Shown one piece after another: positions 24,121 through 48,392 of a stretch of DNA of 64,000 nucleotides. Source of the DNA: Opitutia bacterium. Its GTDB lineage: Bacteria; Verrucomicrobiota; Verrucomicrobiia; Opitutales; T3Sed10-336. Position 1 is the first letter of the stretch, and each line of letters opens with the position of its first letter. The notes beneath the pieces were generated by a model, which did not search any database, was not told where the DNA came from, and saw only the letters and a list, made by a program, of their open reading frames with translations. The stretch covers positions 89,442-153,441 of the forward strand of contig JBJHCF010000006.1 of assembly GCA_050506795.1 (NCBI GenBank), in the 5' to 3' direction. A program made the position numbers and the translations under genes.

Positions 24121-24176
24121 TTTTAGCTTTGTCACCAAAACTGGTTTGTCACCGTAATATCCTTGTCCAATCCGAA

Positions 24177-28525: not shown

Positions 28526-28978
28526 ATGATGAACCCAGCCAAGCCGCTTTATGTCGGGTCGTTCCGGCATAATCTGGACGCCAAGAATCGTCTGACGATT
28601 CCGTCCAAATGGCGCTTCGCGGGTGATGATCAGGACGTTTACCTGGCTCTGCCGCATCCCAGTGGCTACATCGCGGTGCTGCCTCCGGCCGAGATCGAGA
28701 GCCTCCAGCAGAAGGTGATGGAAGTGAAACTCAGCGACCGTGACGGGCAGGACTTCATCAACCGTTTTTTTGCCGAGGCCCATTCCCTGGGTTGCGACAA
28801 GCAGGGAAGGATCGGATTGGCCGAGGGGTTGATCCGTCATGCCGGGATCGAGAAGGAGAGCCTCCTGGTGGGGACTATGACGAAGTTCAACATTTGGAGT
28901 CCCGGCCGTTGGGAAGGCCTGAACGAAAGAACGGGCGGGGATACCTTCGGCGATCTCATGCAAAAAATCGGTATTTAA
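28526..28978 (+). CDS. mraZ: Division/cell-wall cluster transcriptional repressor MraZ
   Basis: LDAKNRLTIPSKWR and DKQGRI repeats; first gene of the dcw cluster. Confidence 0.95.
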   Translation: MMNPAKPLYVGSFRHNLDAKNRLTIPSKWRFAGDDQDVYLALPHPSGYIAVLPPAEIESLQQKVMEVKLSDRDGQDFINRFFAEAHSLGCDKQGRIGLAEGLIRHAGIEKESLLVGTMTKFNIWSPGRWEGLNERTGGDTFGDLMQKIGI

Positions 28979-29045
28979 AGGCCGGCCTGAGGAGATCGGG
29001 GTCCGGCGAAACCAACAGAAAACATCCGAATCCAGATCAAACATT

Positions 29046-29255
29046 ATGAAACTCTCCAACATGCTCTTTTCATCCCAGGTCCTGGGTCGCGGTACGGTCC
29101 GCCATTTCTCGGACGGCGATTTTGCCATCCCGGTCGGCTCCCCCGAAGGAGGTTCCTACATCGAGAGTCTGCGCCTGCGCCGTCCTCCCGCCCGACGGCT
29201 GGTGATGGCACGGAAAACGGCCGGGCGCCCCGGTTTTCGGTCGCTGTTCCGCTGA
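29046..29255 (+). CDS. Putative small protein between mraZ and rsmH (69 aa)
   Basis: ATG-initiated ORF after an A-rich leader, occupying much of the 437-bp gap; no recognisable motif. Confidence 0.4.
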   Translation: MKLSNMLFSSQVLGRGTVRHFSDGDFAIPVGSPEGGSYIESLRLRRPPARRLVMARKTAGRPGFRSLFR

Positions 29256-29415
29256 CTCCGGGAGCGGAGCGAATACCGGCCGGTATCAATCTGGGCATGG
29301 AAAGGACGGTAATATGGCTGTCATGGCAAATCTCTTGGCTAGACGCGGTGTCGATCGCTTTTTCCCCACGGTTTCCTGGCTCGTCGCCCATGCGACCCAT
29401 TGGGGGGATCGCGTC

Positions 29416-30351
29416 ATGAACCACGAGCCGGTTCTTTTGGCGGAAACGATCCACCTGCTTGGGCCGCGAGACGGAGGGCGTTACCTGGACGCGACTTTCG
29501 GCGGCGGGGGCCACGCCCGCGCCCTGCTGGAAGCGGCCGACACCAGCGTTCACGCCATCGACCGCGATCCGGAGGCGGAGCGCCGGGCCGAAGGGTTGCG
29601 GGAAAGTTACGGCGAACGGTTCGCCTTTTACCGGGGCAACTTCGATGCGCTCGACGAGGTTTTGCCTCCGGGACATTATGACGGAATCCTTTTCGACCTT
29701 GGGGTCTCGTCCTATCAACTCGATGATTTCGGCCGGGGATTCTCCTTCCGGCAGGATGGTCCGCTCGATATGCGCATGGATCCAGACCAGGAGTGGACCG
29801 CGGCCGACTGGGTCCGCGAAGCGACCCGCGAGCAGTTGGTGGAGGCGGTGCGGGACTTCGGCGAGGAGCGCGAGTGGCGTCGAGTGGTGGAGGCCATAAT
29901 CCGGACCCGCGAAGTCCGTGACCTGGCGACCACCGAAGACCTGGTGCGGGTGGTGGAGTCGGCGAAAACCCGGCCCCCGCGCAAACGCCCTCCCTCCCTG
30001 CATCCGGCGACCTTGACCTTCCAGGGAATCCGGATCGCGGTGAATGATGAACTGGGCGCTATCGCCAGGGCATTGCCGGCCGCGTTCGACCGGCTTTCGC
30101 CGGGCGGGGTGATGGCGGTGATCAGCTTCCATTCGCTCGAAGACCGGTTGGTCAAACGGTTTTTCCGCCGCATGTGCGGCCGACCCGAACACGCCGCCGA
30201 TTCGCTGCCGCAGCAAATGCGCACCTGTTCCGCCGAACCGCTGAATCGCCGTCCCCTGGTTCCGTCCGACCGCGAGATTCAACGCAATCCCCGCAGCCGC
30301 TCCTCCAAGCTGCGGGCGATCAGAAAATTGACTGAAGATGAAAAGTTTTAA
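29416..30351 (+). CDS. rsmH: 16S rRNA m4C1402 methyltransferase
   Basis: HEPVLL, DATFGGGGHA, DLGVSSYQLD, GPLDMRM, ISFHSLEDR, NPRSRSSKLR. Confidence 0.97.
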   Translation: MNHEPVLLAETIHLLGPRDGGRYLDATFGGGGHARALLEAADTSVHAIDRDPEAERRAEGLRESYGERFAFYRGNFDALDEVLPPGHYDGILFDLGVSSYQLDDFGRGFSFRQDGPLDMRMDPDQEWTAADWVREATREQLVEAVRDFGEEREWRRVVEAIIRTREVRDLATTEDLVRVVESAKTRPPRKRPPSLHPATLTFQGIRIAVNDELGAIARALPAAFDRLSPGGVMAVISFHSLEDRLVKRFFRRMCGRPEHAADSLPQQMRTCSAEPLNRRPLVPSDREIQRNPRSRSSKLRAIRKLTEDEKF

Positions 30352-30730
30352 GACCGAATACGCCAGCCGAATAGTCTGCCTGACGTTTGCCCTGATTTTC
30401 CTGGCCGGCGCCACCGGCCTGGCCACCGTATGGATGCGGCAGAGTATCGGCGCCGCCGCTGCCGAGACCCGATCCATGGAGATTCGCCTCAACGAAGTCG
30501 ATCGCGCCCTGTCGCGAATCAATTCGGAAATCGCGGTCAGCCTGAATCCGGGATTTCTCCAGAGTCAGATCGAACGGTTCAACCTGGACCTGCGCCGTCC
30601 CGACGACGAGCAGATCGTGCGGTTGGACGCGCCGCGTTTGCCGGATCGGGACTACGCGGCCGGAGATGGGTCGAATTCCTCCTCCGATCGTATGGCTTTC
30701 CGCCGTGAAGGTTTAATCACCAACCGATGA
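30338..30730 (+). CDS. ftsL: FtsL-like cell division protein
   Basis: Single TM followed by a coiled coil, located between rsmH and ftsI. Confidence 0.7.
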   Translation: MKSFKTEYASRIVCLTFALIFLAGATGLATVWMRQSIGAAAAETRSMEIRLNEVDRALSRINSEIAVSLNPGFLQSQIERFNLDLRRPDDEQIVRLDAPRLPDRDYAAGDGSNSSSDRMAFRREGLITNR

Positions 30731-32511
30731 CGCCGGCACACGTATCATCTTTTCGACTGGGTCTGGTCGGATTCGTCGTTGCCACCTGCTTCTGCGGCAT
30801 CGGCTTCCGCCTCTATCACCTTCAGGTGGTCGAGTCCGACTCGCTGGCCGCCTTCGCCGACGGGCACCGTAAGCAGGTTATCGTGCAAAAGGCGCGCCGC
30901 GGCACCATCACGGACCGCCGGGGCAATCTCCTGGCGGCTGACCGGACGTTCATCGAACTGGGCGTGGATCCCCAGGTGGTGCGGGAGGAGGATCGCGACC
31001 GCTGGCCCGAACTGGCGCGTATTATCGATATGCCCCTGAATCAGTTGGAGCGTCTCATGACCACCCGGGTTAGCGCCGGGAATTCCGGGTACGCGGAAGA
31101 CGTGCGTTTGGTGCGTTGGAGGAAGTTACAGGACGGTCTGGATGAATCCACTTATGAGAAAATCCTGGAGCTCGGCATTCGCGGAGTTTACGGCAACCGG
31201 CATTACCGGAGGGTTTACCCGGGACGGGAACTCGCCGCGCACGTGGTCGGTTTCTCCAATCGGGAGGGCCGGGGGATTATCGGGGTGGAACACGCGATGG
31301 ATTTCTACCTGCGCGGGACTGACGGCTGGCTGGAGTCCGAGCGGGACGGCCGCCGGCGCGAATTGATGCAGTTTCGCAGCCGCGAGGTTCCGGCCACCAA
31401 CGGTTTGAACATCGAGTTGACCCTCGATAACGTGGTGCAGTTCATCGTGGAGCGTGAATTGCGACGGATCGCGGAAACCTTCGACCCCAAAGGCGCCGTC
31501 ATCATCGTGAGCGAACCCGATACCGGGAATATTCTCGGGTTGGGCAGCTATCCTTCCTTCGATCTCAACCACTACAATCTCGTGGATATCGCCCATCACC
31601 GCAACCTGGCGGTGACCGATGTCCTGGAGCCCGGATCGACCTTCAAGATCGTCCCGGTTGCCGCCGCCCTTGAGGAGGGTCTGGTGACTCCGCATCGGAT
31701 TTTCGATTGCGGGGTTTCCGTGGTGGAATACCGGGGCCGGCGTCTGAGCCTGCCGCGGGACCACCGTGACTTCGGCGAACTTTCGGTGGCGGATATCGTG
31801 CGGGTATCCAGCAATCGCGGCGTCGCTTATATGGGAATGATGCTCGGGGAACAGCGGCTGCACGCCTATTCCGCGGCCTTTGGCTTTGGCCAAAGGACCG
31901 GGTTCCCCCTGGCGGGAGAGGTGCGGGGCACGCTGCATCCGGTGCGCAATTGGGATGGATTGACCATTACCCGGCTCCCGATGGGGCACGCTCTGAACGC
32001 GACTCCCTTGCAGATTCACTACGCCACGGCCACCCTGGCCAACGGCGGCGTCCTGATGGAACCGCGGGTGGTCCGGCGGGCGGTGAACGAGAGGGGAGAG
32101 ACCGTGTTCTCCCTTGATCCGGCGGCTCGTCAGCGGGCGGTTTCGATGGAAACGGCATCGCTGTTGTCCGAATTGCTGGTGGCGGCGGCCGCACCCGGAG
32201 GGACCGCGCCGGAGGCTCGGATTCCAGGATATGAAGTGGCCGGGAAGACCGGGACCACGCAGAAAATCATCGATGGACGGTATTCGCGCCAACACCACGT
32301 GGCGTCGTTTTCCGGCTATTTTCCAGCCTCCAATCCCCGCGTGGTCATCACGGTGATCGTCGACGAGCCGAATTCCGCGGGCCCGTCCTACGGCGGGTTG
32401 GTGGCGGCGCCCAGTTTCCGGCGGGTTGGGGTCGAGTTGATCCCCTATCTCGGCATTGAGGCGGTCCGGCCGGATGCGGTTCTGGCTCAGCGGGAAGGAG
32501 GATTTCGATGA
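30727..32511 (+). CDS. ftsI: Class B penicillin-binding protein (FtsI)
   Basis: RRGTITDRRG; STFK (SxxK), SSN (SxN) and KTGT are all intact. Confidence 0.95.
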   Translation: MTPAHVSSFRLGLVGFVVATCFCGIGFRLYHLQVVESDSLAAFADGHRKQVIVQKARRGTITDRRGNLLAADRTFIELGVDPQVVREEDRDRWPELARIIDMPLNQLERLMTTRVSAGNSGYAEDVRLVRWRKLQDGLDESTYEKILELGIRGVYGNRHYRRVYPGRELAAHVVGFSNREGRGIIGVEHAMDFYLRGTDGWLESERDGRRRELMQFRSREVPATNGLNIELTLDNVVQFIVERELRRIAETFDPKGAVIIVSEPDTGNILGLGSYPSFDLNHYNLVDIAHHRNLAVTDVLEPGSTFKIVPVAAALEEGLVTPHRIFDCGVSVVEYRGRRLSLPRDHRDFGELSVADIVRVSSNRGVAYMGMMLGEQRLHAYSAAFGFGQRTGFPLAGEVRGTLHPVRNWDGLTITRLPMGHALNATPLQIHYATATLANGGVLMEPRVVRRAVNERGETVFSLDPAARQRAVSMETASLLSELLVAAAAPGGTAPEARIPGYEVAGKTGTTQKIIDGRYSRQHHVASFSGYFPASNPRVVITVIVDEPNSAGPSYGGLVAAPSFRRVGVELIPYLGIEAVRPDAVLAQREGGFR

Positions 32512-34079
32512 TCAGTTATGTGCCTGTCGTCCGGCGCCGATCTGAGCGTCGTAATTCCGGTGTCCGGCGTGGACAAAACAATGAAGCTCGGAGACATTCC
32601 TTCATGGAGAAACCTCTAAAAACGATCCTGACCGGTTTGGATGTGACCAGCGCGAGCGGGCGACTGGATCGGTCGATCGATTTCCTCGCCACCGACAGCC
32701 GGCGGGCGGGGCCGGGGTGTCTCTTCTTCGCTTTGCCCGGGAAGAAGACCGACGGCAGCTTTTTCATCGAGGAAGCGATCGATCGCGGTGCGGCCGCGGT
32801 GGTGACCGAGCAGCCCCGGCGTCCGCATTCCGGAGTCGCCTTTATCCAGGTGCCGGATGCGCGTGTGGCCATGGCGCAGGTGGCGCGCAGGTTTTTCAAG
32901 TTTCCGGACGAATCCCTCGCCCTGTGCGGCATCCTCGGCGCACGGGGCAAGTCGACCGCGGCCCACCTGCTCAAACATCTGCTGGACGCCGCCGGGGGGA
33001 GGACCGGACTCACCGGCAGTATCGCCTATGACCTGGGATCCCGCACGGTGCCCTCTTTTCTGACCACCCCCGACGCGGTGGAACTGTCCGGCCTCCTGGG
33101 ACAGATGCGCGATGCCGGGGTGCGCGAGGCGGTGATCGAAATAAACGGCATGGGGCTGCGCCAGAAGAGCGTTTTCGGCCTGCGCTGGAAGGCGGGCGTT
33201 TTTCTTAACGGTGCCATGGGCAGGGCATCGGAAGAAGTTCCCACCGAGACCGATTTCAAACTCGCGCGCGAGCTTTTCCAGGGATCTCTCGGAGGCCCGC
33301 CGGAGATTGCGGTCATCTGCTCGGATGATCCCCTGGGCCGGGAATTGATCGCCTCCAATCCGGCGTCGGTCCGTCTGGTGACCTTTGGTTCGACCGAGGG
33401 TGCGGATATTCGGGCGGTTCGGATCGTGCCCGGTCCGGATTCGAGCCGTATCACGCTCGCCTGGCCGGAGGGCGAAACGGAGATTCTACTGCCGCTGACC
33501 GGCGCGACCAACGCCGCCAACTTCCTCGGCGCCGCCGCGGCGGCCTACGCGTTGGGTCGGGATCCCGCCACATTCGCGCACGCCCTGGCCCGGTTCTCCG
33601 GGGTGCCCGGACGAATGGAGCGAGTCGATAACGGGCAGGACTTTCGGGTTTTTGTGGACCACGGACACACCGCCAACCGTTTGCGCGCCACCCTGGCGGC
33701 GCTGCGGGAGGTCACCCAGGGCCGGATCCTGGTGGTTTTTGGTTGCGGGGGGAATCGCGACCGCGCCGTCCGGGCCGAGTTGGTCGAGCGGATCCAGCAA
33801 CAGGCCGATTTTTTCTGGGCCACCGCCGACAATACCCGGGGCGAAAGCCTGGAGCAGATCTTCTCCGATATGAAACCAGGGGTGATCGATCCCGCTCGGA
33901 TCTCGTTTGTCTCCGAGCGCCGGGAGGCAATCCGTCAGGCTTTCGAGGAGGCCGAAGAAGGTGATGCCGTACTGCTTGCCGGCAAGGGAAACGAGTCTTT
34001 CCTTGAGATGGGCGACACTTTGTTGCCCTTTGACGATCGAATGGTGGCGAGGGAACTTCTGTCCCTGCCCAGAACATGA
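32508..34079 (+). CDS. murE: MurE-like Mur ligase with several signature motifs substituted
   Basis: Three-domain MurE layout (DSR..LFFAL, TTP, PGRME, VFGCGGNRD, AGKG) in the murE position, but GILGARGKST, EINGMGLRQKS, LNGAMGRASEE, VDHGHTA and DNTR replace the canonical motifs. Confidence 0.85.
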   Translation: MISYVPVVRRRSERRNSGVRRGQNNEARRHSFMEKPLKTILTGLDVTSASGRLDRSIDFLATDSRRAGPGCLFFALPGKKTDGSFFIEEAIDRGAAAVVTEQPRRPHSGVAFIQVPDARVAMAQVARRFFKFPDESLALCGILGARGKSTAAHLLKHLLDAAGGRTGLTGSIAYDLGSRTVPSFLTTPDAVELSGLLGQMRDAGVREAVIEINGMGLRQKSVFGLRWKAGVFLNGAMGRASEEVPTETDFKLARELFQGSLGGPPEIAVICSDDPLGRELIASNPASVRLVTFGSTEGADIRAVRIVPGPDSSRITLAWPEGETEILLPLTGATNAANFLGAAAAAYALGRDPATFAHALARFSGVPGRMERVDNGQDFRVFVDHGHTANRLRATLAALREVTQGRILVVFGCGGNRDRAVRAELVERIQQQADFFWATADNTRGESLEQIFSDMKPGVIDPARISFVSERREAIRQAFEEAEEGDAVLLAGKGNESFLEMGDTLLPFDDRMVARELLSLPRT

Positions 34080-34122
34080 ACTTTGCGTACATTATTCAAA
34101 CCCGAAGGGAAATAAAAACCTG

Positions 34123-35595
34123 ATGCCCGAATTCAACGCAGCACAATTGGCCGAGTGGTCCGGGGGAACCTGGACCCGCGAGCCGCAGGGACCAATCACC
34201 GGGTTTTCCCACGATTCCAGACGGATAAAGACCGGCGAGATGTTCGTGGCGCTGGCCACATCCTCCCGGGACGGGCATGAATACCTGGAGGACGCCCGCG
34301 AGCATGGCGGGTCCGCCGCCCTGGTCACCCGCGCGGTGCCGGGGTCGCCCCTTCCGCAGTTGGTGGTGGACGATGTGCTGTCCGCGCTGCACCGGATGGC
34401 GACCGGAAATCGCGACCGATTTCGGGGACCGGTGATCGGTGTGACCGGAAGCTGCGGCAAAACCTCCGCCAAAGATCTCTTGGCCGAATTGCTGGCCTTT
34501 ATGGGGCCGGTTCTCCGTACTTCGGGAAATTTCAACAACCACATCGGTGTTCCGCTGACCCTGCTGCAACTGGATCCCGCTTACCATCGCGCCGCGGTGG
34601 TGGAAGCCGGAATCAATGCTCCGGGGGAAATGCGCGTTCTGGCAGGGTTGATTCGCCCGACGCACGGAATGGTCACCAACGTGGCGCCCACTCATCTGGA
34701 AGGATTGAATAACCTCGCCGCGGTGGCCGAGGAGAAGAGTCTGCTTCTGCACGCGGTTCCGCCGGAAGGGGTGGTCGCTTTTCCGGCTACCTGTCTGGCG
34801 TTTCCGGGTTTCTGGCGTTTGCGTTGCCGGTCGCTGGTGACCGAGGACGAATCCGCGACCCCGCCCGCCGCGCAGAGGTTTCTGAGTGGGCTGATGCCCG
34901 AATTTTCCTCCGAGCTGTTGGTGTCGCCGCGCAATCGCGCAACCTTTTTCCGCGAAGGGGAAGGGCGCGCCGCCCATCTCCGGGTGCGTTTTCCTCGCGA
35001 GGGGCGCCTCGTTTCCTTCGAGGCGGGCACCCTGAGTCCGGGAATGGCGGCCAACGCCGTCCTGGCCATGATGCTGGCGCGTGTGCTGGGAGCGGATGAC
35101 CGGGCGCTGGCGATCGGGCTTTCCTGTTGGCAGCCTGACGCCTTGCGCGGCCGGGCCTTTCGGACGGAATCCGGCTTTTATTATCTCGACTGCTATAATT
35201 CCAGTCCCATGGCCCTGGTCGACGCCCTGGAGGCGTTCAACCGTGCCGCGCCCAAGGGAATGGCGCGACTCTACATCCTTGGTTCCATGGCCGAGCTGGG
35301 ACGTTACGCCAACGTCTTTCACCAGGAGACCATGCGATTTCTCAAATTGGAGGAGAACGACTTTGCCTTGCTGATCGGCGATCACGCCGCCGCCATGGGC
35401 GAGGGTCTCGCCCTGGCGGGCAACGATTCCTCGCGGTGGAGCGTGGAGGATTCCTGGGAAAACGTTCGCACGCGTTATGCCACATTTCGCGGAGCGGTGT
35501 TTGTCAAGGGCAGTCGCCGGTATCGTCTGGAACGTCTCTTGGAGGAAACTCCGGCTGCGCCGGGACACTGCTCCGGAAAGGAAGTGGCATGCTGA
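34123..35595 (+). CDS. murF: UDP-MurNAc-peptide:D-Ala-D-Ala ligase MurF
   Basis: GVTGSCGKT, NFNNHIGVPLTL, GEM, HLEG, DCYNSSP, LGSMAELG, VKGSR. Confidence 0.94.
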   Translation: MPEFNAAQLAEWSGGTWTREPQGPITGFSHDSRRIKTGEMFVALATSSRDGHEYLEDAREHGGSAALVTRAVPGSPLPQLVVDDVLSALHRMATGNRDRFRGPVIGVTGSCGKTSAKDLLAELLAFMGPVLRTSGNFNNHIGVPLTLLQLDPAYHRAAVVEAGINAPGEMRVLAGLIRPTHGMVTNVAPTHLEGLNNLAAVAEEKSLLLHAVPPEGVVAFPATCLAFPGFWRLRCRSLVTEDESATPPAAQRFLSGLMPEFSSELLVSPRNRATFFREGEGRAAHLRVRFPREGRLVSFEAGTLSPGMAANAVLAMMLARVLGADDRALAIGLSCWQPDALRGRAFRTESGFYYLDCYNSSPMALVDALEAFNRAAPKGMARLYILGSMAELGRYANVFHQETMRFLKLEENDFALLIGDHAAAMGEGLALAGNDSSRWSVEDSWENVRTRYATFRGAVFVKGSRRYRLERLLEETPAAPGHCSGKEVAC

Positions 35596-36689
35596 GCTAC
35601 CTGGCCGAGTTGGAGGAACTTTTCGGTCCCTTCCGGCTTTTCCGTTACATCACCTTTCGTGGATTGCTCGCGGCCGGGACGGCTCTTTTTATCGGCTTCG
35701 TCATGGGCCCGTGGCTCATCGCTCGCCTGAAAGCCCTCAGTTTCGAGCAGAGTTTGCGCACCCGGGAAGAGGTCGGGGACCTGGCCGGACTGCACTCGAC
35801 GAAAAAGGACACTCCCACCATGGGCGGGCTCCTGATTCTGGCCTCGGTGACGGTCAGCACGCTTCTCTGGGCGAGGCCCAATATCTGGGTGCTGGTGGCT
35901 CTCTTTGTGTTTCTGGGACTGGGGCTTCTCGGGTTCGCCGACGATTACCTCAAGGTGTCGCGGCGCAACAGCAAAGGGGTTTCGGGGAAACGAAAAATTC
36001 TTTGGCAAAGCGCGGTGGCGGTTATCGCGCTGAGCGCCTTATTGCTGCATCCGGAGAGCGCGGAGAAAGTGCGCGAATTGTGGGTCCCGTTTGTCAAAGA
36101 CGCCGTCATGACGGCGTCGCCGCTCTGGTTTCTTTTTCCGTTCTTTTTCCTTGTGATCATCGGCTCCAGCAACGCCATCAACCTGACCGACGGAATCGAC
36201 GGCCTGGCCATCGGTTGCACCATTATCGTGGGACTGGTTTACGCCGTCATGGCCTACGCCGCCGGGAACATTATTATTTCCGAGTACCTTTTCATCAGCT
36301 ACGTGCCCGGAACCGGGGAGTTGAGCATTGTATGCGGCGCCCTGGTGGGCGCGGGACTGGCCTTTTTGTGGTACAATTCGCATCCGGCCGAGGTTTTCAT
36401 GGGCGACACCGGATCACTGGCGCTGGGGGGAATCGTTGGGGCCGTGGCCTTTATGGTGCACCAGCCGCTTACGCTGGTGATTGTGGGCGGAATTTTCGTG
36501 ATGGAGGCGGTCTCCGTCATCCTGCAGGTGGTATCGTTCAAGAGCCGCGGAAAGCGGATCTTTCGTATGGCCCCGATTCACCACCACTTCGAGCTTAAAG
36601 GGTGGTTTGAAACCAAGGTGGTCGTGCGTTTCTGGATACTTTCGCTGGTCTTTGCGATCATCGGTCTGGGAACGCTTCGTTTGCGATGA
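35589..36689 (+). CDS. mraY: Phospho-MurNAc-peptide translocase
   Basis: KKDTPTMGG, DDY, NLTDGIDGLA, FMGDTGSLALGG, MAPIHHHFE. Confidence 0.97.
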   Translation: MLSYLAELEELFGPFRLFRYITFRGLLAAGTALFIGFVMGPWLIARLKALSFEQSLRTREEVGDLAGLHSTKKDTPTMGGLLILASVTVSTLLWARPNIWVLVALFVFLGLGLLGFADDYLKVSRRNSKGVSGKRKILWQSAVAVIALSALLLHPESAEKVRELWVPFVKDAVMTASPLWFLFPFFFLVIIGSSNAINLTDGIDGLAIGCTIIVGLVYAVMAYAAGNIIISEYLFISYVPGTGELSIVCGALVGAGLAFLWYNSHPAEVFMGDTGSLALGGIVGAVAFMVHQPLTLVIVGGIFVMEAVSVILQVVSFKSRGKRIFRMAPIHHHFELKGWFETKVVVRFWILSLVFAIIGLGTLRLR

Positions 36690-36690
36690 G

Positions 36691-36951
36691 ATGACTATCA
36701 ACGAATTTCAGAACCAGAAAAAGTCCGGCCGCGGAACGCCCGGTTTTGCGGTGGTTTTTGTTTGCGCTGTGATCACTCCATTCCGAAAATGGCAAAATTA
36801 CTCGCGCGGCCGGAGATTGGCCGCATCGGGTTTCGAGGACGCTTCCGGAGGGCGGACCATGCCGACCGGTTGCAGGACAGAAGTAAAACACGGACTTTTA
36901 AAGGAGAATTCACAGTGCAGACAGTTATGGGGAGGTATAGGAATCTTATGA
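36691..36951 (+). pseudogene. Possible eroded murD remnant or small hypothetical ORF (86 aa)
   Basis: Starts 1 nt after the mraY stop and overlaps the next ATG. MTINEFQNQKK resembles a MurD N-terminus and TPGFA..NYSRGRR weakly resembles the MurD C-terminal SP.FASF..Y..RG motif. Confidence 0.3.
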
Positions 36952-38060: not shown

Positions 38061-38082
38061 CCGTCTGTTTCGATTGACTTGA

Positions 38083-39243
38083 ATGGCGACCCGCTCAGCA
38101 GAACGACTTTCGCTTGCCGGAATATTTCAACCGGGGGTGATTATCCTGGTGTGCGTGGTCAGCCTGACGGTCTTTGGCATCAGCGTGTTGTTCAGTGCCA
38201 GCGCCCACTCGGGCGCGGATCCTTATTTCTTTATCCGCCGTCAGTTTATGTGGCTGGCGGTGGCGGTGGCGACGGGAGTTTTTGTGTCCCTGCTGGACCT
38301 GGAGGCCTTGCGGCGGTTCTCCTGGCCAGTGTTGTTGGTCTCGGTGGCCGGCCTGGTGCTGGTGTTGATCCCGGGAATCGGGGTTGAGGTCAACGGCGCC
38401 CGGCGCTGGATCGATCTCGGGTTCATGCGTTTGCAGGTTTCCGAGTTCGCCAAGCTGGGGCTGGTTTTCTGTTTGGCTTGTTACCTCGGGGCGAACCACC
38501 GCGTTATTCCGACCTTCTGGCACGGGTTTGTTTTGCCCTGTCTGCTCATTGGTTTGTTCGCCGGGCTGATTTTCCTCGAGCCGGATTATGGAACCGCGGC
38601 CCTTTGCGGGGCGGTGGGTTTCACCCTTCTGTTTCTGGCCGGGGTACGCCTGATTTTCCTGGTTCCGGCCTGTACCGCGGCTTTGGCGGCCTTCGCTTTC
38701 GCGGTGTTCACCAATCCGTTGCGTCGGGGGCGGATCATGTCCTTCATGGATATCGAAGGCAACCGCGGTGAAGGCGCCTACCAGTTGTGGCAGGCCATCC
38801 TGGCGTTTGGCGCCGGCGGTGTCGAAGGAGTGGGGCTGGGGAATGGTCGCCAACAGATGGCTTTTCTTCCGGAAGCCCATACCGACTTTATTTTCGCCGT
38901 GATCGGCGAGGAACTGGGTTTTCTCTTTACCACCGGAGTGCTCCTGCTCTTTCTGATCCTTTTCATCGCCGGAATCCTGCATTTGAAACGGGCGCCCAAT
39001 ATGTACCAGTACCTGCTGGTTGCGGGAGGGCTGTTGCTGCTCAGCACCCAGGCGCTGATCAACATGGGGGTGGTGACCGGCTGTTTGCCCACCAAGGGGT
39101 TGTCCCTGCCATTCATCAGTTACGGCGGTTCCAACCTGGTGGCCATGTTTATCATTGTCGGCATCCTGGTGAATACGTCTTTGACCTGGTCCCGCTCGCC
39201 GATTTGCGACAAACGGCGTAAACTCAAGGAGATTGCCCGGTGA
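38083..39243 (+). CDS. ftsW: SEDS peptidoglycan polymerase FtsW
   Basis: NGARRWI, QVSEFAK, EPDYG, LPEAHTDFIF, PTKGLSLPFISYGGS. Confidence 0.96.
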   Translation: MATRSAERLSLAGIFQPGVIILVCVVSLTVFGISVLFSASAHSGADPYFFIRRQFMWLAVAVATGVFVSLLDLEALRRFSWPVLLVSVAGLVLVLIPGIGVEVNGARRWIDLGFMRLQVSEFAKLGLVFCLACYLGANHRVIPTFWHGFVLPCLLIGLFAGLIFLEPDYGTAALCGAVGFTLLFLAGVRLIFLVPACTAALAAFAFAVFTNPLRRGRIMSFMDIEGNRGEGAYQLWQAILAFGAGGVEGVGLGNGRQQMAFLPEAHTDFIFAVIGEELGFLFTTGVLLLFLILFIAGILHLKRAPNMYQYLLVAGGLLLLSTQALINMGVVTGCLPTKGLSLPFISYGGSNLVAMFIIVGILVNTSLTWSRSPICDKRRKLKEIAR

Positions 39244-40391
39244 TGAAGATCCTGATTTCCTGCGGAGGAACGGGTGGTCATCTGGCGCCCGGAATTGCCC
39301 TGGCTGAAGGTCTGGTCTCGCGCGGGCACGCTTGCCGGCTATTGATCAGCGAGAAAAAGGTGGACCGGCGTCTGGTCAGCAAATACCCGGCGCTCGATTT
39401 CATCCCGGTGGCGGGGGCGCCGTTTTCGCTGCATCCGGTCCGGTTCTTCCAATTCCTGGTGAATCAGGCGCGCGGGCTGCTGCAGTCAGTGCGCCTGGTG
39501 CGGACGTTCGGTCCCGACCTGATCATCGGATTCGGGGGGTTCAGCACCCTGGGTATCGCGCTGGCGGGGTTTTTCCTGCGGGTTCCTCTGGTCCTGCACG
39601 AGGCCAACCGGGTGCCCGGACGAGCCACCCGGTTTTTGCGCCCACTGGCTTCGCGGGTGTACCTGCCTCCCGGTGTGAGGCTGAGCAATGTGAGCCCGGA
39701 GACCATCCGCCATTACGGCTGCCCGGTGCGCCGGGAGATCCATCGTTGCCCGGTGAAATCGAGCCGCAAAACCCTGGGAATCGATCCGCACGGCAAGGTC
39801 CTGGCGGTCCTGGGGGGAAGTCAGGGGGCCTCCGTTCTCAATGCCTGGGTGCGCGAGCATTTCCAGGCCCTGGCGAATGAGGGCATTCATGTTTATTGCG
39901 TGACCGGTATGGACAAGGGAGACTCCGGATCGGTGCGCCTTTGGTCGAAAGACGGGCACCCGATAAAAGCCCATTTTGTGCCGTTTACCGACCGAATGCC
40001 CGAATTGCTCTCAGCGGCCGACCTGGTGGTCAGCCGGGCCGGGGCCGGGACCATTAACGAACTTATTCGCTGCCGGGCGCCGTCCATTCTGATTCCCTAT
40101 CCCTACGCGGCGGATAACCACCAGTGGGCCAACGCGGTTTTTGTGGAGCGCCAGGGTGGCGGAATCGTCGTCGGTCAGGATTATATCCACACCCTGCACG
40201 GGGAGGTGGTGGACACCATTTTCAACGACTGGTTGCTGAAAACCTTCCAGACCAACCTGGAACGGATGGATCGCCGGGATTGCCTGAACGCCATTATCAA
40301 GGATCTCGAAGGTCTGGTGGAGGCGGCGGGAAAAAACGGCCGTGATGCTCGCATGACTCCCTCGTTGCGCAACCATTTCAGCCAGGCATGA
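39240..40391 (+). CDS. murG: Lipid I N-acetylglucosamine transferase
   Basis: GGTGGHLAPG, HEAN, GGSQGA, SRAGAGT, DNHQWANA. Confidence 0.96.
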   Translation: MMKILISCGGTGGHLAPGIALAEGLVSRGHACRLLISEKKVDRRLVSKYPALDFIPVAGAPFSLHPVRFFQFLVNQARGLLQSVRLVRTFGPDLIIGFGGFSTLGIALAGFFLRVPLVLHEANRVPGRATRFLRPLASRVYLPPGVRLSNVSPETIRHYGCPVRREIHRCPVKSSRKTLGIDPHGKVLAVLGGSQGASVLNAWVREHFQALANEGIHVYCVTGMDKGDSGSVRLWSKDGHPIKAHFVPFTDRMPELLSAADLVVSRAGAGTINELIRCRAPSILIPYPYAADNHQWANAVFVERQGGGIVVGQDYIHTLHGEVVDTIFNDWLLKTFQTNLERMDRRDCLNAIIKDLEGLVEAAGKNGRDARMTPSLRNHFSQA

Positions 40392-41356
40392 ACGCCCTTT
40401 CGTCCATTAAGCAGCCCGCCGAAATTTCTTCGGATTTCGTTTCCGCGGTCGAAGCGTCGCTCAGTTCCGAATCCAGGTTTTCCCACCATGAGCCCCTGGC
40501 CGACAAAACCACACTGAGGGTGGGCGGTGAGGCTCTATATTACGCGGAACCGGCATCGATCGAGGATCTTAGTGCGATTCTGCGGTGCGCGGTCCGGTGC
40601 GGAATTCCGGTGCTTTTGCTGGGTCGAGGGTCGAACGTGGTGGTGCCCGATGACGGAGTGGACGCCTTGGTCTTGCGGTTGCAGCACCCTTGCTGGCGTC
40701 AAATCAGTGTTGCTCAGGACGGTCGCGTGCGGGTGGGCGCTGGGGTGCGTTTGCGCCAGCTCTGCGGCGAAGCGTGTCGACAGGGCATGGCGGGTCTGGA
40801 GTTTCTGGAAGGTATCCCGGGCACCGTGGGCGGTGCACTGCGGATGAACGCCGGTGCCATGGGCGGCTGGATTTTTGATCTGGTGGAGGAGGTGCGCATG
40901 ATGACCTGGGACGGTAACGAGCGGACCTTTCGGCGGGAGGAGATGCATTACGGTTACCGCAATTGCCGGGAACTCGCGCGAGCGATCGCCTTGGAAGCGG
41001 TCCTGGCGGCGCCCGGCCGTGAACAGGTGGAGGACATTAAACGCCGGCTCAAGGAATACCAGGTTCGGCGGGACCAATCACAGCCCAAGGAATCCAGCGC
41101 CGGCTGTATGTTCAAGAACCCGGAGGGAGATCATGCGGGCCGGTTGATAGACGAATTGGGTCTGAAGGGCGCCCGGGTGGGGGATGCCGAGGTCTCGGGG
41201 GTGCACGCCAATTTTATCATCAATCGCGGCCGGGCGACCGCCGGGGACGTGATCGGACTTGTCCGTCATATACGTCGGGAGGTGCGTCGACAAAAGGACC
41301 TGGACCTGGAGCCTGAAGCCTTGCTTTTTGGCAAGGATTGGAGGGAGGTCCTGTGA
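40388..41356 (+). CDS. murB: UDP-N-acetylenolpyruvoylglucosamine reductase (stand-alone)
   Basis: TTLRVGG, LGRGSN, GIPGTVGGALRMNAGA, SAGCMFKNP, HANFIIN; the ATG overlaps the murG stop. Confidence 0.96.
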   Translation: MNALSSIKQPAEISSDFVSAVEASLSSESRFSHHEPLADKTTLRVGGEALYYAEPASIEDLSAILRCAVRCGIPVLLLGRGSNVVVPDDGVDALVLRLQHPCWRQISVAQDGRVRVGAGVRLRQLCGEACRQGMAGLEFLEGIPGTVGGALRMNAGAMGGWIFDLVEEVRMMTWDGNERTFRREEMHYGYRNCRELARAIALEAVLAAPGREQVEDIKRRLKEYQVRRDQSQPKESSAGCMFKNPEGDHAGRLIDELGLKGARVGDAEVSGVHANFIINRGRATAGDVIGLVRHIRREVRRQKDLDLEPEALLFGKDWREVL

Positions 41357-42288
41357 GTGCGCCGGTGGTAGCCGTCTTTGCGGGCGGGATTTCCCGTGAG
41401 CGCGAGGTTTCCCTGCGATCGGCCGAGGCGGTGCGGGTCGCCCTGGAACAACAGTTTCCGGTGGAGGTGTTTGTGATTGATTCCCCGGAAGTTCCGGCGG
41501 GTGTGCAGGCGGATTCCCACGTGGTGTTTTCCACCCTGCACGGCGTTTTCGGGGAGGATGGAGGCATGCAGTCGTTGCTCGACGCGCTCGGGATCGAGTA
41601 TGCCGGCAGTGATACCGCCGCCAGCCGTTTGTGCATGGATAAGAGCGCAAGCAAGAGCACGGTTTCCTCCGGCGGAGTCCCGGTGCCCCGTGGATTGGTG
41701 TTTCCAGGCGGCGGGCCGCCGTCCGCGAGTGAGATTCTGGGCGAACTCGGGCCTCGGGTGGTGCTCAAACCGAACGGAGAAGGCAGCAGTATCGGATTGC
41801 GTTTCGCCGAAGGTGAAGGTGAGTTGGGCGACGCGCTGCGGGACCTCGGTGCCGGTGACTGGTTGGTCGAGGAGCGCATCGTCGGACGCGAGCTCACCGT
41901 CGGCGTGCTGGACGGACGGGCGATGGGCGTGGTCGAGATCATACCGGCATCGGGCCGATACGATTACGAAAGCAAATACACCAAAGGCCTGACCCGCTAT
42001 CAGGCGCCGGCCGGCCTTCCCGACGAAACGTCGCTGGAAATTCGCCGGGCGGCGGAAACCGCGTTCGCCCGCTGCGGATGCCGTGATTTCGCGCGGGTGG
42101 ATTTTATCCTGGAGGACAACGGACAGGCTCGGTTTTTGGAGGTTAACACGTTGCCCGGTCTGACCGGCACCAGTTTGCTTCCGATGAGCGCGGCTTGTGA
42201 GGGTTTCGACTTTAATGCTTTGGCGCGGCGGCTTGTTTTGCCCGCCTTGCATCGATTTAATTCAGTGAACGATAAGGTGAAGTCGTGA
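41353..42288 (+). CDS. ddl: D-alanine--D-alanine ligase
   Basis: GGISREREVSL, LHGVFGEDG, KPNGEGSSIG, YDYESKY, RVDF, LEVNTLPG. Confidence 0.96.
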   Translation: MSAPVVAVFAGGISREREVSLRSAEAVRVALEQQFPVEVFVIDSPEVPAGVQADSHVVFSTLHGVFGEDGGMQSLLDALGIEYAGSDTAASRLCMDKSASKSTVSSGGVPVPRGLVFPGGGPPSASEILGELGPRVVLKPNGEGSSIGLRFAEGEGELGDALRDLGAGDWLVEERIVGRELTVGVLDGRAMGVVEIIPASGRYDYESKYTKGLTRYQAPAGLPDETSLEIRRAAETAFARCGCRDFARVDFILEDNGQARFLEVNTLPGLTGTSLLPMSAACEGFDFNALARRLVLPALHRFNSVNDKVKS

Positions 42289-43172
42289 GGGGAAAGAAAG
42301 CCAAAAAGAAATCCGTGGGCAGTTGGCGGAGCATCCGGCAATCGGCCCGGGAAGTTAAAATTTCGAGTTTCGCCCGCCAGCGTTACCAGAAGATCGTGCT
42401 TCGTACCGTGGGAGCAGGTCTGTTGTTGATTGTCCTTGGCGTGGCTTGCTGGGGAGCCTTCCGTGTGGTGCAGGAGGGTTCCCGCAAAATCACCTCCCTG
42501 ATTCCCTCATCGCCGGTCGGGGATATCGATTTTTCCACCGATGGGGTGGTCTCCGATGCCTGGGTGCTCGAACGGATCGATTTGCCCGAGGATATTCCCC
42601 TGATGGAAATCGATATTCACGAAGTGAAAAACGACCTGGAGCGCCATCCCCAGATACGGCGTGCCGTCGTGGCTCGACGGCTGCCGGACCGTCTCAGCAT
42701 TCGCATTGAGGAACGCATGCCGATGCTGCGTATGGCGGCGCGGGATTCGGCCGGAAGGCGGGTCAATCTTCTGGTCGCGGAAGACGGAGTCGTGTATCAG
42801 GGAGTTGGGTACAATCGGGCGTTGCTCAATTCATTGCCCTATGTCGCCGGAGTCCGTCTCCAGCGCGAGGGGGGCGGCTTCCGTCCCCTGGAAGGGATGG
42901 AGCCCGTGGCGGAGTTGCTCAATATGGCGCGGAATGAGGTTCCGGAGATCTACGCCGCCTGGCGGGTGGTGGACTGTTCCGACCTGCCGCTCATCCGGGT
43001 GACGACCGAGGAGATTTCCGAAATCGTTTTCCGCAACAGCGAATTCCCCGAGCAATTGGCTCAGCTGCACCAGCTGCTGCTGCATCAGCGCCGTAATATG
43101 GGAGGCATGCCCTACGAACGAGTGGACCTCTCCCTGGGGGGCGGGGTCGATGTGCCGGTGAGCCTGTACTGA
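42285..43172 (+). CDS. ftsQ: Cell division protein FtsQ
   Basis: Basic cytoplasmic N-terminus, TM helix, POTRA-like IRRAVVARRLPDRLSIRIEERMP; lies between ddl and ftsA. Confidence 0.88.
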   Translation: MRGKKAKKKSVGSWRSIRQSAREVKISSFARQRYQKIVLRTVGAGLLLIVLGVACWGAFRVVQEGSRKITSLIPSSPVGDIDFSTDGVVSDAWVLERIDLPEDIPLMEIDIHEVKNDLERHPQIRRAVVARRLPDRLSIRIEERMPMLRMAARDSAGRRVNLLVAEDGVVYQGVGYNRALLNSLPYVAGVRLQREGGGFRPLEGMEPVAELLNMARNEVPEIYAAWRVVDCSDLPLIRVTTEEISEIVFRNSEFPEQLAQLHQLLLHQRRNMGGMPYERVDLSLGGGVDVPVSLY

Positions 43173-43201
43173 GGGGGAAACCCGTCCCGAGTATGGCCGT
43201 C

Positions 43202-44419
43202 ATGAGCAAAAGCAAGATCATTGCCGGAATCGAAATCGGCACCGCCAAGATCGCCGTCCTGGTGGGCGAGGTCCATAACGGCAACAGTCTCAATATTATC
43301 GGATTCGGTGAATCGAGCTCGCGCGGCGTGATGAAGGGGGTGGTGTTCGACTTCAAGCAGGCCGGCGAAGCGACCCACGCCGCCATCCATGCGGCGGAGA
43401 AACAGGCCGGGGCCCACATCGAGGGGGTTTACCTGGCGCAAACCGGGGCTCACATCGACGGCTTTTACAACGAAGCCGCGGTTTCCGTGAGCTCCGCCTC
43501 CAATCTGGTCGCGGCCGAAGATATTCGGCGGGTGTGCGAAAGCGCCAAGGCCAAGGCCCTCCCGGACGACCGCACGGTGATTCATCACATTCGCCGGCCC
43601 TTCCGGATCGATGGGCGCATGGTGCCGGACCCGGAGTATCTTGAAGGCTCCAAGTTGGAAGTGGGGTACTGGATTGTGCACGGAAGCGTGAAGGAGGTCG
43701 GCGACGCCATTCGGATCGTGAATGGATTCTCCCTTCACGTGGACGATATCATCCTTTCAAGCCTGGCTTCCGGGGTGATGGTGGCCAGCGACGACGAGAT
43801 GCGCAACGGCGTGTTGGTGGTTGATATCGGGTGCGGCGCAACGGATTTTGTGTTTTACCGCGACGGATACGTGGTCAAGACCGGCACGCTGCCCGTGGGA
43901 GGGGATCACGTTACCAACGACCTGGGACTGGGTCTGCGGGTGACCCGGCGTCAGGCGGAAACGATCAAAGTCAATGCCGGCAAAGCGGTGCTGGACCCGG
44001 CGGACCGGGGAAAGAAGATCTGGTTGAACGGAGACCTTTCCATCGGCGACCGTCAGGTTCCCCGCGAAGCGATCAACAAGATCGCCCATGCCCGGGTGGA
44101 GGAGCTCTTTGAACTGGTCAAAAAAAAGCTGGGAGAATCATTCACCTCACGCAACGCGGCGGCCGGGGTGATTCTGACCGGGGGCGGAGCCCGTTTGAAT
44201 GGGATGGCGCAGGTCGCCGAGGAGGTGTTTGGCGTCACCGCGCGGGTGGGAGAGAATCCGCCCTGGGTGACGCGGCAACTGCGCGGAATCGAGTACAGCA
44301 CCGTCCTGGGACTTTTAAACTACGGCTTGAAGAACGAGGGTGACCGCGATGCCGGCGCCTTGCGGGCCAAACCGGGAGGCCTGCTGCGCCGTATGACCAG
44401 GATTTTCGATCGAACGTGA
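43202..44419 (+). CDS. ftsA: Cell division protein FtsA
   Basis: IAGIEIGTAKI, VVDIGCGATD, PVGGDHVTNDL, ILTGGGA, and an amphipathic C-terminus. Confidence 0.96.
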   Translation: MSKSKIIAGIEIGTAKIAVLVGEVHNGNSLNIIGFGESSSRGVMKGVVFDFKQAGEATHAAIHAAEKQAGAHIEGVYLAQTGAHIDGFYNEAAVSVSSASNLVAAEDIRRVCESAKAKALPDDRTVIHHIRRPFRIDGRMVPDPEYLEGSKLEVGYWIVHGSVKEVGDAIRIVNGFSLHVDDIILSSLASGVMVASDDEMRNGVLVVDIGCGATDFVFYRDGYVVKTGTLPVGGDHVTNDLGLGLRVTRRQAETIKVNAGKAVLDPADRGKKIWLNGDLSIGDRQVPREAINKIAHARVEELFELVKKKLGESFTSRNAAAGVILTGGGARLNGMAQVAEEVFGVTARVGENPPWVTRQLRGIEYSTVLGLLNYGLKNEGDRDAGALRAKPGGLLRRMTRIFDRT

Positions 44420-45654
44420 TGGAATCCTCTGAAAACCAACCGGACGACCAGGCGACGGTCGAACTCGACGACAACCCTCCCGTGAGACCTCCGCGGCCGA
44501 CCATCCGCCTTGTCGGGGTGGGCGGGGCCGGCGCCAACGCGGTGTCGCGTCTGCGGGATGAGGTCTCCACCGACATCGAGTGCAGCGCCATCAACTGCGA
44601 CGCCCAGGCGTTGTCGCGTTGTCCGCTGGAGCAAAAGCTTTTGATTGGAGAGCAGGTGGTCCGCGGACTCGGCGCCGGCGGCGACCCCGAGGTCGGGCAG
44701 CGCGTGGCGGAGGCCTCGATGTCCGACTTGGCCAAGTGGGTGACAGGCGCGGATGTGGTTGTCTTGGTGGCCGGCCTCGGCGGCGGCACGGGAGGCCCGG
44801 TGGCCAGTGCGACGGCCAAAGCGGCGACGGAGGCGGGGGCTTTGACGCTGGCTTTTCCCGTGCTCCCTTTTTCCTTCGAAGGCGTTCGGCGGAGAAAACA
44901 GGCGGATACTGCGCTGGCCGCGCTGCGGCAGCACTGCGATGCCGCCATTCCATTGCCAAACGACCTCCTCCTGCAACAGATGGGTGACGAAACCCCGGCC
45001 GCGGAGGTGCTCCGCCGCTCAGACGAATGGGTCGGTCTGGCGATTCAATCGCTGCGGGACGTGTTGTGTTCTCCGGGTGATATAAATCTCGATCTCGGTA
45101 ACCTGCGCCGCGTTTTCCGTCATCGCGGCGGCAAGACGCTGTTCGGTTTCGGTCGCGGCAACGGCGAGCGCGCTGCCGACAGCGCGTTCAGCGACTTCCT
45201 GCTTTGCCCGTTGCTGCATTCTCCGGAGTTCGCCAGCCGGGCGGAAAACCTGCTCATCAATGTCTCGGCGGGTCCCGATTTCGCCATGAGCGCGTTTCAT
45301 GACCTGGTGAAGCGGGTTACAGAACGCTTCGGTCGCGACGGCCACATCGCCATGGGACTGGCGATCGAAGAGCGACTCCAGGGAGAAGTGGAGATATTTG
45401 TGCTGGGAACCACCGACATTGGCCGTCCCGGCGCGGCCGCCCGCCGTCCCGCCGCCAAATCCGAACCGGCGCCCGTCCAAACCAAGCCATCCAAATCCTT
45501 GACCCCGGCTCCGGCCAAACCCAACCAGGAAGAATTCGGCTTCGACACCCAGGATCGCCGCGGCTTCTTCAACCGCTCCGAAACCAACCGCTTCGAAGGC
45601 GAAGACCTCGACATCCCCACCTACCTCCGCCGCGGCATCAAGATCTCGCTCTGA
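44416..45654 (+). CDS. ftsZ: Cell division protein FtsZ (divergent T7 loop)
   Basis: VGVGGAGANAV, GLGAGGDPEVG, GLGGGTGG, PFSFEG, C-terminal DLDIPTYLRR; T7 loop reads GDINLDLGN. Confidence 0.95.
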   Translation: MMESSENQPDDQATVELDDNPPVRPPRPTIRLVGVGGAGANAVSRLRDEVSTDIECSAINCDAQALSRCPLEQKLLIGEQVVRGLGAGGDPEVGQRVAEASMSDLAKWVTGADVVVLVAGLGGGTGGPVASATAKAATEAGALTLAFPVLPFSFEGVRRRKQADTALAALRQHCDAAIPLPNDLLLQQMGDETPAAEVLRRSDEWVGLAIQSLRDVLCSPGDINLDLGNLRRVFRHRGGKTLFGFGRGNGERAADSAFSDFLLCPLLHSPEFASRAENLLINVSAGPDFAMSAFHDLVKRVTERFGRDGHIAMGLAIEERLQGEVEIFVLGTTDIGRPGAAARRPAAKSEPAPVQTKPSKSLTPAPAKPNQEEFGFDTQDRRGFFNRSETNRFEGEDLDIPTYLRRGIKISL

Positions 45655-48381: not shown

Positions 48382-48392
48382 TTGACCTTTGA
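46857..48392 (+). CDS. IS1182-family DDE transposase
   Basis: SVDPVIIVKLLFL..SERELM..WFLG..IPDHS, HVDGSLVDADAS, STTDPDA, YICPAGK, CAGCPLRAQC, EGSFAD; the stop codon lies outside the right IR. Confidence 0.93.
   Translation: MMGEHQEQKDLFSYYVDLDARVRRNNPLRSIKESINFDWVRGEVSKFYGYNGNVSVDPVIIVKLLFLLFYDNISSERELMRIVPERLDYLWFLGLGIDDEIPDHSVLSKARRRWGGDVFEKLFVSTVRQCVEAGLVDGDKIHVDGSLVDADASKDSVVRGPEELMDRLREAYGAQERKLEGSAGDPNYKSKNRRLMSTTDPDAPCVRHGKKGGTGDSKPRYKNHRAVDDKCGVITAVETTAGDVEENSRSESLIEQHRQTTGKTVKTLVGDRQYGTVENYRRLQKLGICTHMGPTQSSRNSRYESIFPTDKFTYDPDNDCYICPAGKHLRSRGLHERRQYTIYKAKKSDCAGCPLRAQCTRSKSGRTINRYVDQELIDLGRKQAASRAGRLDRRRRRYLGEGSFADATRHHFKRARWRRLKRHRIQDLLIASIQNMKILVRSRSNGPIAAEGRIFLESLPVKGVLLQRQTYYPLNIPGGTNRADYSQPGIQKDFPLPHRHSRPFRQQPLDL

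Follow-up and report, generated by a model that had tools for sequence, protein, structure and literature searches.

The 64,000-nucleotide stretch of Opitutia DNA analyzed here (the window) carries a division and cell wall (dcw) gene cluster that lacks the stem-peptide ligase genes murC and murD, and neither gene was found elsewhere in the genome. MurC and MurD are regarded as universal and essential in walled bacteria; here they have been cleanly deleted, and repeatedly so, in free-living Opitutales. The MurE encoded in the cluster (MurE*) looks, from its catalytic residues, like a pseudoenzyme, a second MurE (MurE2) is encoded outside the cluster, and the ligase Mpl is present. We propose, in a judgement that we regard as evenly balanced, that the stem would be made as a free peptide and then loaded on UDP-linked N-acetylmuramic acid (UDP-MurNAc) by Mpl.

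Loss of murC and murD from the cluster, the genome and related families

The cluster has the order mraZ-rsmH-ftsL-ftsI-murE*-murF-mraY-[gap]-lysM-ftsW-murG-murB-ddl-ftsQ-ftsA-ftsZ (Table 1). A first-pass annotation of the window had described this arrangement, with a gap of 258 bp behind mraY and an ATGA shared by the end of murG and the start of murB (40388–40391), and open reading frames (ORFs), hidden Markov models (HMMs) and tblastn bear it out. No trace of MurD was found in the mraY-lysM gap by tblastn. The window MurB aligns solely with residues 504–802, the C-terminal half, of the MurC-MurB fusion of a relative (G008; 58%), implying that the MurC half has been cut out.

The Mur ligase profile PF08245 identifies five domains in the genome of the window (G000, 97.8% complete; other G numbers denote comparison genomes and f numbers families within Opitutales), belonging to MurE*, MurF, MurE2, Mpl and FolC. 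The MurC model (TIGR01082) gave nothing over its cut-off in this genome, the top score (219 bits) being that of the Mpl, and the MurD model (TIGR01087) likewise gave nothing over cut-off, with a top score of 80 bits; tblastn with the G008 proteins and phmmer with the E. coli proteins also found neither. The absence of both genes, first noticed in the cluster, therefore holds genome-wide, and these negatives rule out their relocation, which had been offered as one explanation; murE appears to have been replaced non-orthologously by MurE2. The genome-wide HMM search recommended in the first-pass annotation did recover MurA, MurJ, Mpl and the second MurE, and the genome also has MurB, MurF, Ddl, MraY, MurG, Alr and DapF. 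MurI was not recovered: the glutamate racemase profile PF01177 has no match in any of five genomes (G000, G006, G007, G009 and G008), and one of these, G008, keeps MurD nonetheless. Class IV aminotransferases are present, with none of the four non-IlvE copies scanned reaching the D-amino-acid transaminase cut-off, and MurL had no match in the five genomes scanned, a search in which the control genome was also silent. The MurA proteins of G007 (C58:9159-10442) and G009 (C6:9134-10420) are divergent (~341 bits versus 524–557 in most relatives), which suggests replacement by transfer.

The family of the window's genome (f1, probably Verruconatronaceae from gene content) is represented by 12 genomes, 67–98% complete. 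Neither a MurC nor a MurD match was found in 10 of the 12; murD is over cut-off in one (G008), and two (G005 and G008, genus g4) have a MurC-MurB frame, the contigs of G005 ending at the murD position. All six f1 relatives in which the cluster is whole (G002, G003, G004, G006, G007 and G009) have the window's order, and the clusters of G010 and G011 are interrupted by contig ends. The identical order in relatives rules out an assembly collapse as the source of the missing genes.

We surveyed 351 Opitutales genomes, each at least 90% complete, calling murD at E ≤ 1e-45. MurD was found in 289, and is low only in f1 (1/6), f14 (7/28) and f22 (35/45). In f14, which named MurE2 matches indicate is probably Oceanipulchritudinaceae (one MurE2 sequence, P0058, carries the species name Oceanipulchritudo coccoides), five genomes are canonical and the murD scores of G237 and G297 lie near 1e-54. 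A further f14 genome, G024, has a murD relic that has lost its catalytic motifs and no murC-murB in the cluster (L133:9784-11175, 12630-15511). In f22 (probably, as a tentative name, Opitutaceae), nine of the 45 genomes have the order without murC and murD, one of them a single-contig genome. Loss of murC and murD thus recurs in three Opitutales families, and the rewired order, recovered by the recommended comparison of dcw synteny, in f1 and f22. Its presence in six f1 relatives and nine f22 genomes upholds the earlier reading of a coordinated loss, as opposed to random decay or assembly collapse. Several independent losses are likely, since the rewired f1 and f14 Mpl proteins do not group together in a quick tree and each family has canonical members. 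In G107 (L297), MurC and MurB are encoded by separate ORFs, and ddl is missing from its place between murB and ftsQ.

Two MurE proteins and Mpl

We scored MurE proteins at 24 conserved catalytic or substrate sites, comparing 9 MurE* and 108 aligned MurE2 sequences with 77 canonical ones (generic MurEs among the matches listed in a scan of genome contigs). The window MurE* retains 12 of the 24 sites against a canonical median of 24 (n = 77), so the MurE had rightly been flagged as altered. It has lost the P-loop Asn, SSH, Arg193, DH, the carbamylated Lys and the Pro of DNPR, and retains the UDP-domain DSR. Across the nine genomes MurE* keeps 10–20 sites, with the carbamylated Lys in one of nine and replacements that differ from genome to genome, a pattern resembling decay and the reason for regarding MurE* as a pseudoenzyme. 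The G003 copy is apparently split over two frames (L019:3840-5278), by further decay or an assembly error.

It has to be considered whether the ligases were replaced step by step, with Mpl in the role of MurC and MurE*, or some unseen enzyme, in that of MurD. Four peptide ligases do remain for four steps, and a murC(ts) mutant can be complemented by overexpression of mpl from E. coli, as recounted in PMC3060825. However, the residue losses of MurE* are not conserved, indicating decay and not a new specificity and ruling it out as a new MurD, the G003 copy is apparently split, and Mpl is without change (see below), so that we regard this scheme as highly unlikely.

MurE2 is encoded on contig C19 (35851–37323, minus strand), outside the dcw cluster, and scores 430 bits with TIGR01085 (cut-off 257). 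It retains 23–24 of the 24 catalytic and DAP (diaminopimelate) sites in 108/108 aligned members, including DNPR, Arg390 and Glu469, which relate to DAP, and Ser185/Arg193. In a FastTree phylogeny of 57 rows (sampling 22 of the 77 canonical and 13 of the 108 MurE2 sequences), MurE* nests among Opitutales dcw MurEs and MurE2 forms a separate clade (support 99 each). The intact MurE2 implies that the DAP-adding step has been replaced and not lost, and the phylogeny and motifs together identify a non-orthologous replacement of the dcw murE by MurE2.

The two enzymes differ in domain 1, where individual residues (DSR, GxxxDG) presumably contact the uridine. DSR occurs in 0/108 MurE2 proteins versus 62/77 canonical ones, position 43 is Glu in 108/108 where canonical MurE has Gly in 76/77, and an E-Y/F-L-x-Y-N-x-W motif is inserted, its five-residue insert being modelled as a hairpin (AlphaFold, predicted local distance difference test 95). 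The domain profile PF01225 was not detected in MurE2 among the best 117 matches. The overall model keeps the MurE fold (Z 45.5, root-mean-square deviation (rmsd) 2.0 to 2xja). Domain 1 of MurE is described as the uridine site (PMC3829189), and the modelled hairpin may occlude the UDP pocket.

These features bear on the shortened stem suggested in the first-pass annotation, either MurNAc-X-D-Ala-D-Ala or D-Ala-D-Ala joined directly. The absence of murC and murD, the apparently dead MurE*, and two other genomes in which no intact MurE is seen (G155 and G544) would suit such a stem. The G000 MurE2 keeps the DNPR pocket for DAP with the other residues just named, DapF and MurF are present and conventional, and Mpl keeps its tripeptide-ligase signature, which make this suggestion extremely unlikely.

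MurE2 (called at E ≤ 1e-95) occurs in 27 of the 351 genomes: G000, four of six f1 and 21 of 28 f14 genomes, and a borderline dcw MurE of G047. With the exception of G047, no MurE2-bearing genome has a MurD of canonical score, and MurC is absent from 20 of the 21 f14 genomes with MurE2, the exception being G175. Within f1, the genes that flank murE2 are not conserved.

Mpl is encoded on contig C11 (~36728–38160) and scores 378 bits with TIGR01081 (cut-off 389) versus 220 with the murC model. Its signature is SAFFDKRGK, where most relatives have SAFFDKRSK and the general form is (S/T)AFFDKRSK. Mpl is present in 11/12 f1 genomes, 26/26 f14 genomes searched and at least seven of the nine rewired f22 genomes. 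A comparison of 29 rewired with 14 canonical copies, made alongside the quick tree, found no substitution that the rewired ones share and the others lack, and conversion of Mpl into a MurC is rejected. For Psychrobacter arcticus Mpl, PMC3060825 gives rates of 260/min with tripeptide, 1.4 with Ala-D-Glu and 0.7 with Ala, the dipeptide rate being ~190-fold below that of the tripeptide. An unchanged Mpl with this preference would need a ready-made tripeptide, which a UDP-independent MurE2 would supply, and the preference would account for why a DAP ligase acting on free peptide was gained.

A possible peptide-first route and its rivals

In the proposed route, MurA and MurB, whose genes are present, would provide UDP-MurNAc. 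A free dipeptide, L-Ala-D-Glu, would arise, for which the candidate makers are DgcN with DgcA in f1 and an aminoacyl-tRNA transferase of ATE fold in f14. MurE2, as its kept catalytic core and rebuilt UDP pocket suggest, would add meso-DAP to the free dipeptide; Mpl would then carry out the reaction for which it is known and couple the tripeptide to UDP-MurNAc; and MurF, MraY, MurG, MurJ and FtsW/FtsI would complete a wall with ordinary pentapeptides. This would make MurC, MurD and the dcw MurE redundant, allowing deletion of murC and murD and leaving MurE* as a dead remnant, perhaps a scaffold. That such a de novo, off-nucleotide route arose repeatedly in free-living Opitutales in place of MurC, MurD and often MurE, with a tRNA-dependent or DgcN-type transferase forming the Ala-Glu bond, a UDP-independent MurE and an essential Mpl, is a more tentative idea, to which we give somewhat less than an even chance; it would amount to a second way for bacteria to begin the stem.

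The ATE-like gene (245 amino acids (aa); Atlas 0.96) is convergent with murE2 in 10 of 16 f14 loci fetched. It occurs in 26 of the 351 genomes, 22 of the 28 in f14 and four in f22. The f14 carriers are all 21 MurE2 genomes and G261, where a fifth ligase beside the gene is interrupted by a contig end, and none of the five canonical genomes; the four f22 carriers all lack murC and murD. PF04377 (ATE_C) matches the copy of the f22 genome G250 at 29 bits (cut-off 25), and two other copies are below cut-off or without a match. In structural comparison, a model of an f22 homologue comes closest to ATE1 (Z 17.6, rmsd 4.6, 248 aligned), with MprF and FemX next. In f22 the gene follows alr and an ATP-grasp gene (G250) or lies beside an AmiA-like amidase gene (G298, G306). 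In G250 (L251:8479-11769) an apparent operon encodes, besides alanine racemase and the ATE-like transferase, a GARS-like ATP-grasp protein, which is a further candidate peptide ligase and has PurD (25%) as its only counterpart in G000. A dipeptide maker of the ATP-grasp_4 family was rejected, there being one match over cut-off in G000 and none common to G141 or G024. Neither homology between the ATE-like protein and DgcN nor a long fusion of the ATE-like protein was found, the latter null being weak evidence.

In G000, dgcN and dgcA are adjacent on contig C78 (524 bits over a cut-off of 480 and 451 over 400). DgcN has a P-loop domain, and DgcA is an Ala-Glu epimerase relative 48% identical to E. 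coli YcjG. Among 44 hand-picked genomes, DgcA occurs in 9/9 rewired f1 genomes searched versus 0/2 canonical ones. The families of both candidates acylate the amine of glutamate. For DgcN this activity is taken from its NCBIfam name, that of a D-Glu N-acyltransferase, and from PMC12363236. Neither gene is a universal partner of the loss: the ATE-like gene is absent from f1 and from five of nine rewired f22 genomes, and DgcN/DgcA give only weak matches in two of 26–28 f14 genomes.

The cultured Verruconatronum alginivorum AB-alg1 has the window's dcw order (pgaptmp_003430-3444 of GCA_056590205; PMC13274419). In Table S3 of that paper, 'muram' occurs eight times, in no case for a MurD, and the proteome contains a second MurE (pgaptmp_002180, 502 aa) and a stand-alone 'MurC' (pgaptmp_004248) of 488 aa, the length of the G000 Mpl frame, together with DgcN, DgcA, MurB, MurF, Ddl, MurG, MurJ, Alr and DapF. 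The dcw MurE is undetected there; FtsI, MraY and FtsW are undetected too, making this weak evidence. In the same table, term searches give no annotated class A penicillin-binding protein (PBP), and two LpoB activators are present. The strain is reported to grow vigorously in pure culture in mineral medium with alginate and 20 mg/L yeast extract (PMC13274419).

Several observations weigh against the peptide-first route. Gene content, motifs and co-distribution are observed, but every substrate, and with it every enzyme activity in the route, is predicted from sequence. The ATE-like gene is lacking in G000 itself. DgcN occurs in 20/351 genomes, including the MurD-keeping families f17 (4/8) and f31 (3/3), so that its fit to f1 may reflect one inherited gain, and the name given to it is that of an acetyltransferase in D-Glu catabolism (NF041892; PMC12363236). 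G175 has MurE2 together with murC-murB, the latter on an odd contig whose dcw genes are 31–43% identical to those of the window, versus 39–52% for G165, and which on this comparison is probably foreign. Neither the ATE-like gene nor DgcN is present in G244, G280, G286 and G155, and the dgc pair of G354 is a distant one; in both G155 and G354 MurE is degenerate, and a search for MurE2 found none. The ATE-like gene was also sought in 336 genomes of the phylum and occurs in 11, of which one (G544) lies outside Opitutales. G544 lacks MurC and MurE and keeps Mpl and MurF; its MurD is over cut-off with the Glu, Asn and Lys catalytic positions changed, and the association of the ATE-like gene with ligase loss was in this out-of-sample comparison half borne out. 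V. alginivorum cells are loose-walled cocci that lyse quickly in stationary phase, and the species is known here from rows of an annotation table in a paper whose main text is silent on peptidoglycan (PMC13274419). The genome of the window, finally, carries recycling genes: OppA/B, an AmpG-like major facilitator superfamily (MFS) protein (89 bits, cut-off 350), an Amidase_2 protein and an MpaA-like M14 protein.

As side observations, Mpl and MurF are present and no intact MurE was found in G155 (L284), G354 (L288) and G544 (L312), and G354 has an extra MurF-like ligase without domain 1 (L291:3039-8860) beside an NRPS-like (nonribosomal peptide synthetase) adenylation gene and GNAT genes, which probably belongs to secondary metabolism.

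A further difficulty is that the nine f22 genomes lost murC and murD without gaining MurE2, and seven keep an intact, DSR-bearing MurE. For these seven, which also have Mpl, the simplest route is that Mpl loads L-Ala-D-Glu, made or salvaged, and that MurE acts on UDP-MurNAc-dipeptide; loading of dipeptide by Mpl is likely to apply in f22. Extended to the window's genome, this would make MurE2 a normal MurE with an altered nucleotide pocket. The slow use of Ala-D-Glu by Mpl (PMC3060825) and the retained MurE fold of MurE2 are consistent with this reading, but the dipeptide rate of the P. arcticus enzyme is ~190-fold lower, no adaptive change was found in Mpl here, and the decay of a working dcw MurE after gain of an outside MurE with a rebuilt domain 1 in two families is left unexplained. 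We consider it doubtful as a general account.

The main rival to the peptide-first route is salvage only, in which foreign stem peptides would be imported via Opp/AmpG and cells in pure culture would have little or no wall; MurE2 would re-cap trimmed Ala-D-Glu with DAP, making Lys-type debris usable by Mpl. The recycling genes just listed, with OppA/B in the window itself, fit this reading, as do the loose wall and quick lysis of V. alginivorum (PMC13274419) and the precedent of Fidelibacter IA91, described as coccoid without muropeptides (PMC11652737). Unlike IA91, however, V. alginivorum grows without a stated peptidoglycan source; it expresses late wall enzymes, Alr and DapF, and AmpG is not among the entries of its table (PMC13274419). 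No LdcA match was found in G000, and salvage leaves unexplained why a gene of tRNA-transferase fold accompanies the second MurE in 22 of 22 f14 cases. The first-pass annotation had suggested scavenging of tripeptide through an Mpl-type ligase: the ligase was indeed found, but plain scavenging alone does not explain the gain of a DAP ligase exactly where MurC and MurD were lost. Overall we regard salvage only as unlikely.

Cluster features and comparison with known systems

The features of the cluster are collected in Table 1. An oligopeptide ATP-binding cassette gene set, oppA-oppB-(oppC), lies 9 kb upstream (16155–19576, minus strand); E. coli MppA finds its best match in this OppA (E 4e-81), and the third ORF has no NCBIfam match. 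Two neighbouring ORFs at 21979–25553 (plus strand) carry P-loop GTPase motifs and look dynamin-like on inspection by eye, and a transposase-like ORF, IS1182-like by eye, lies just 3′ of ftsZ (46848–48392, plus strand).

Table 1. Features of the dcw region, in window coordinates, with the basis of each assignment
Feature	Position	Strand	Basis or remark
glmS	26420..28267	-	Divergent from cluster; named from ORF translation, no profile scan
mraZ	28526..28978	+	TIGR00242 78 bits, under cut-off 98
rsmH	29419..30351	+	TIGR00006 295 bits; start inferred from beginning of HMM match
ftsL-like small membrane protein	30338..30730	+	Position, conservation in relatives; no NCBIfam match
ftsI, class B PBP	30727..32511	+	Profile scan
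murE*, Opitutales dcw MurE orthologue, probably catalytically dead	32508..34079	+	Likely start 32604
murF	34123..35595	+	TIGR01143 275 bits, under cut-off 289
mraY	35589..36689	+	TIGR00445 378 bits
258-bp gap, murD site in canonical relatives	36690..36947	.	Between mraY and lysM
LysM lipoprotein; canonical relatives have it after murD	36948..38060	+	Profile scan, synteny
ftsW	38083..39243	+	TIGR02614 335 bits, under cut-off 338
murG	39240..40391	+	TIGR01133 227 bits, under cut-off 250
murB, surviving half of ancestral murC-murB fusion	40388..41356	+	NF010480 301 bits
ddl	41338..42288	+	NF002378 275 bits
ftsQ-like	42285..43172	+	Position, conservation; no NCBIfam match at 1e-10
ftsA	43193..44419	+	TIGR01174 303 bits
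ftsZ	44416..45654	+	TIGR00065 243 bits, under cut-off 295

If true, the peptide-first route would begin the synthesis of stem peptides in a new way, with a MurE independent of UDP-MurNAc and perhaps a first peptide bond that depends on tRNA, and V. alginivorum, cultured and with the same gene order, makes it testable. It is also relevant to a long-standing question, why peptidoglycan signals are weak in verrucomicrobial subdivision 4 (PMC5303756); nearly all wall genes are reported in three Opitutales genomes in that paper (Rast 2017). Published literature outside subscription journals, searched by title and start of abstract, gave no account of the loss of murC and murD in Opitutales, of MurE2 or of a stem begun with the help of tRNA.

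The fold of the f14/f22 partner protein is common to the ATE1/Bpt, MprF and Fem aminoacyl-tRNA transferases. ATE1/Bpt enzymes acylate the amine of N-terminal Asp/Glu, with which JGI names agree, and Fem enzymes add cross-bridge residues to completed precursors. Unlike Fem enzymes, the partner is proposed to form the first stem bond with tRNA; G000 is without this gene. The Xanthomonas MurD2/MurL route places D-Glu without MurI, but requires a MurD-type ligase, of which G000 has none.

Compared with canonical MurE (EC 6.3.2.13; PDB 1e8c, 2xja and 4c12), MurE2 has the same fold (Z 43–45) and all ATP, Mg, carbamyl-Lys and DAP residues, and differs by the family motif and hairpin that replace the domain-1 DSR/GxxxDG, by its non-dcw locus and by its separate clade. 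The dgcN-dgcA pair of G000 is over cut-off for families described as catabolic (NF041892, NF042940; compare YcjG), and its anabolic role in the stem is hypothesized from co-distribution in one family.

In Mpl recycling as described for E. coli and P. arcticus (TIGR01081; PMC3060825), a signature-bearing Mpl joins a ready peptide to UDP-MurNAc with MurF acting downstream, as here. There Mpl supplements MurC, MurD and MurE, whereas here it is the sole remaining ligase able to load UDP-MurNAc and would therefore be essential, needing a net source of peptide. The closest cultured precedent is the auxotroph Fidelibacter multiformis IA91, which is likewise described as building its wall via recycling chemistry without a normal de novo route, requiring exogenous muropeptides and making no MurNAc, D-Ala, D-Glu or DAP (PMC11652737). 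In contrast, G000 keeps MurA, MurB, Alr, Ddl and DapF, and V. alginivorum, with the same gene order, is reported to grow without added muropeptides.

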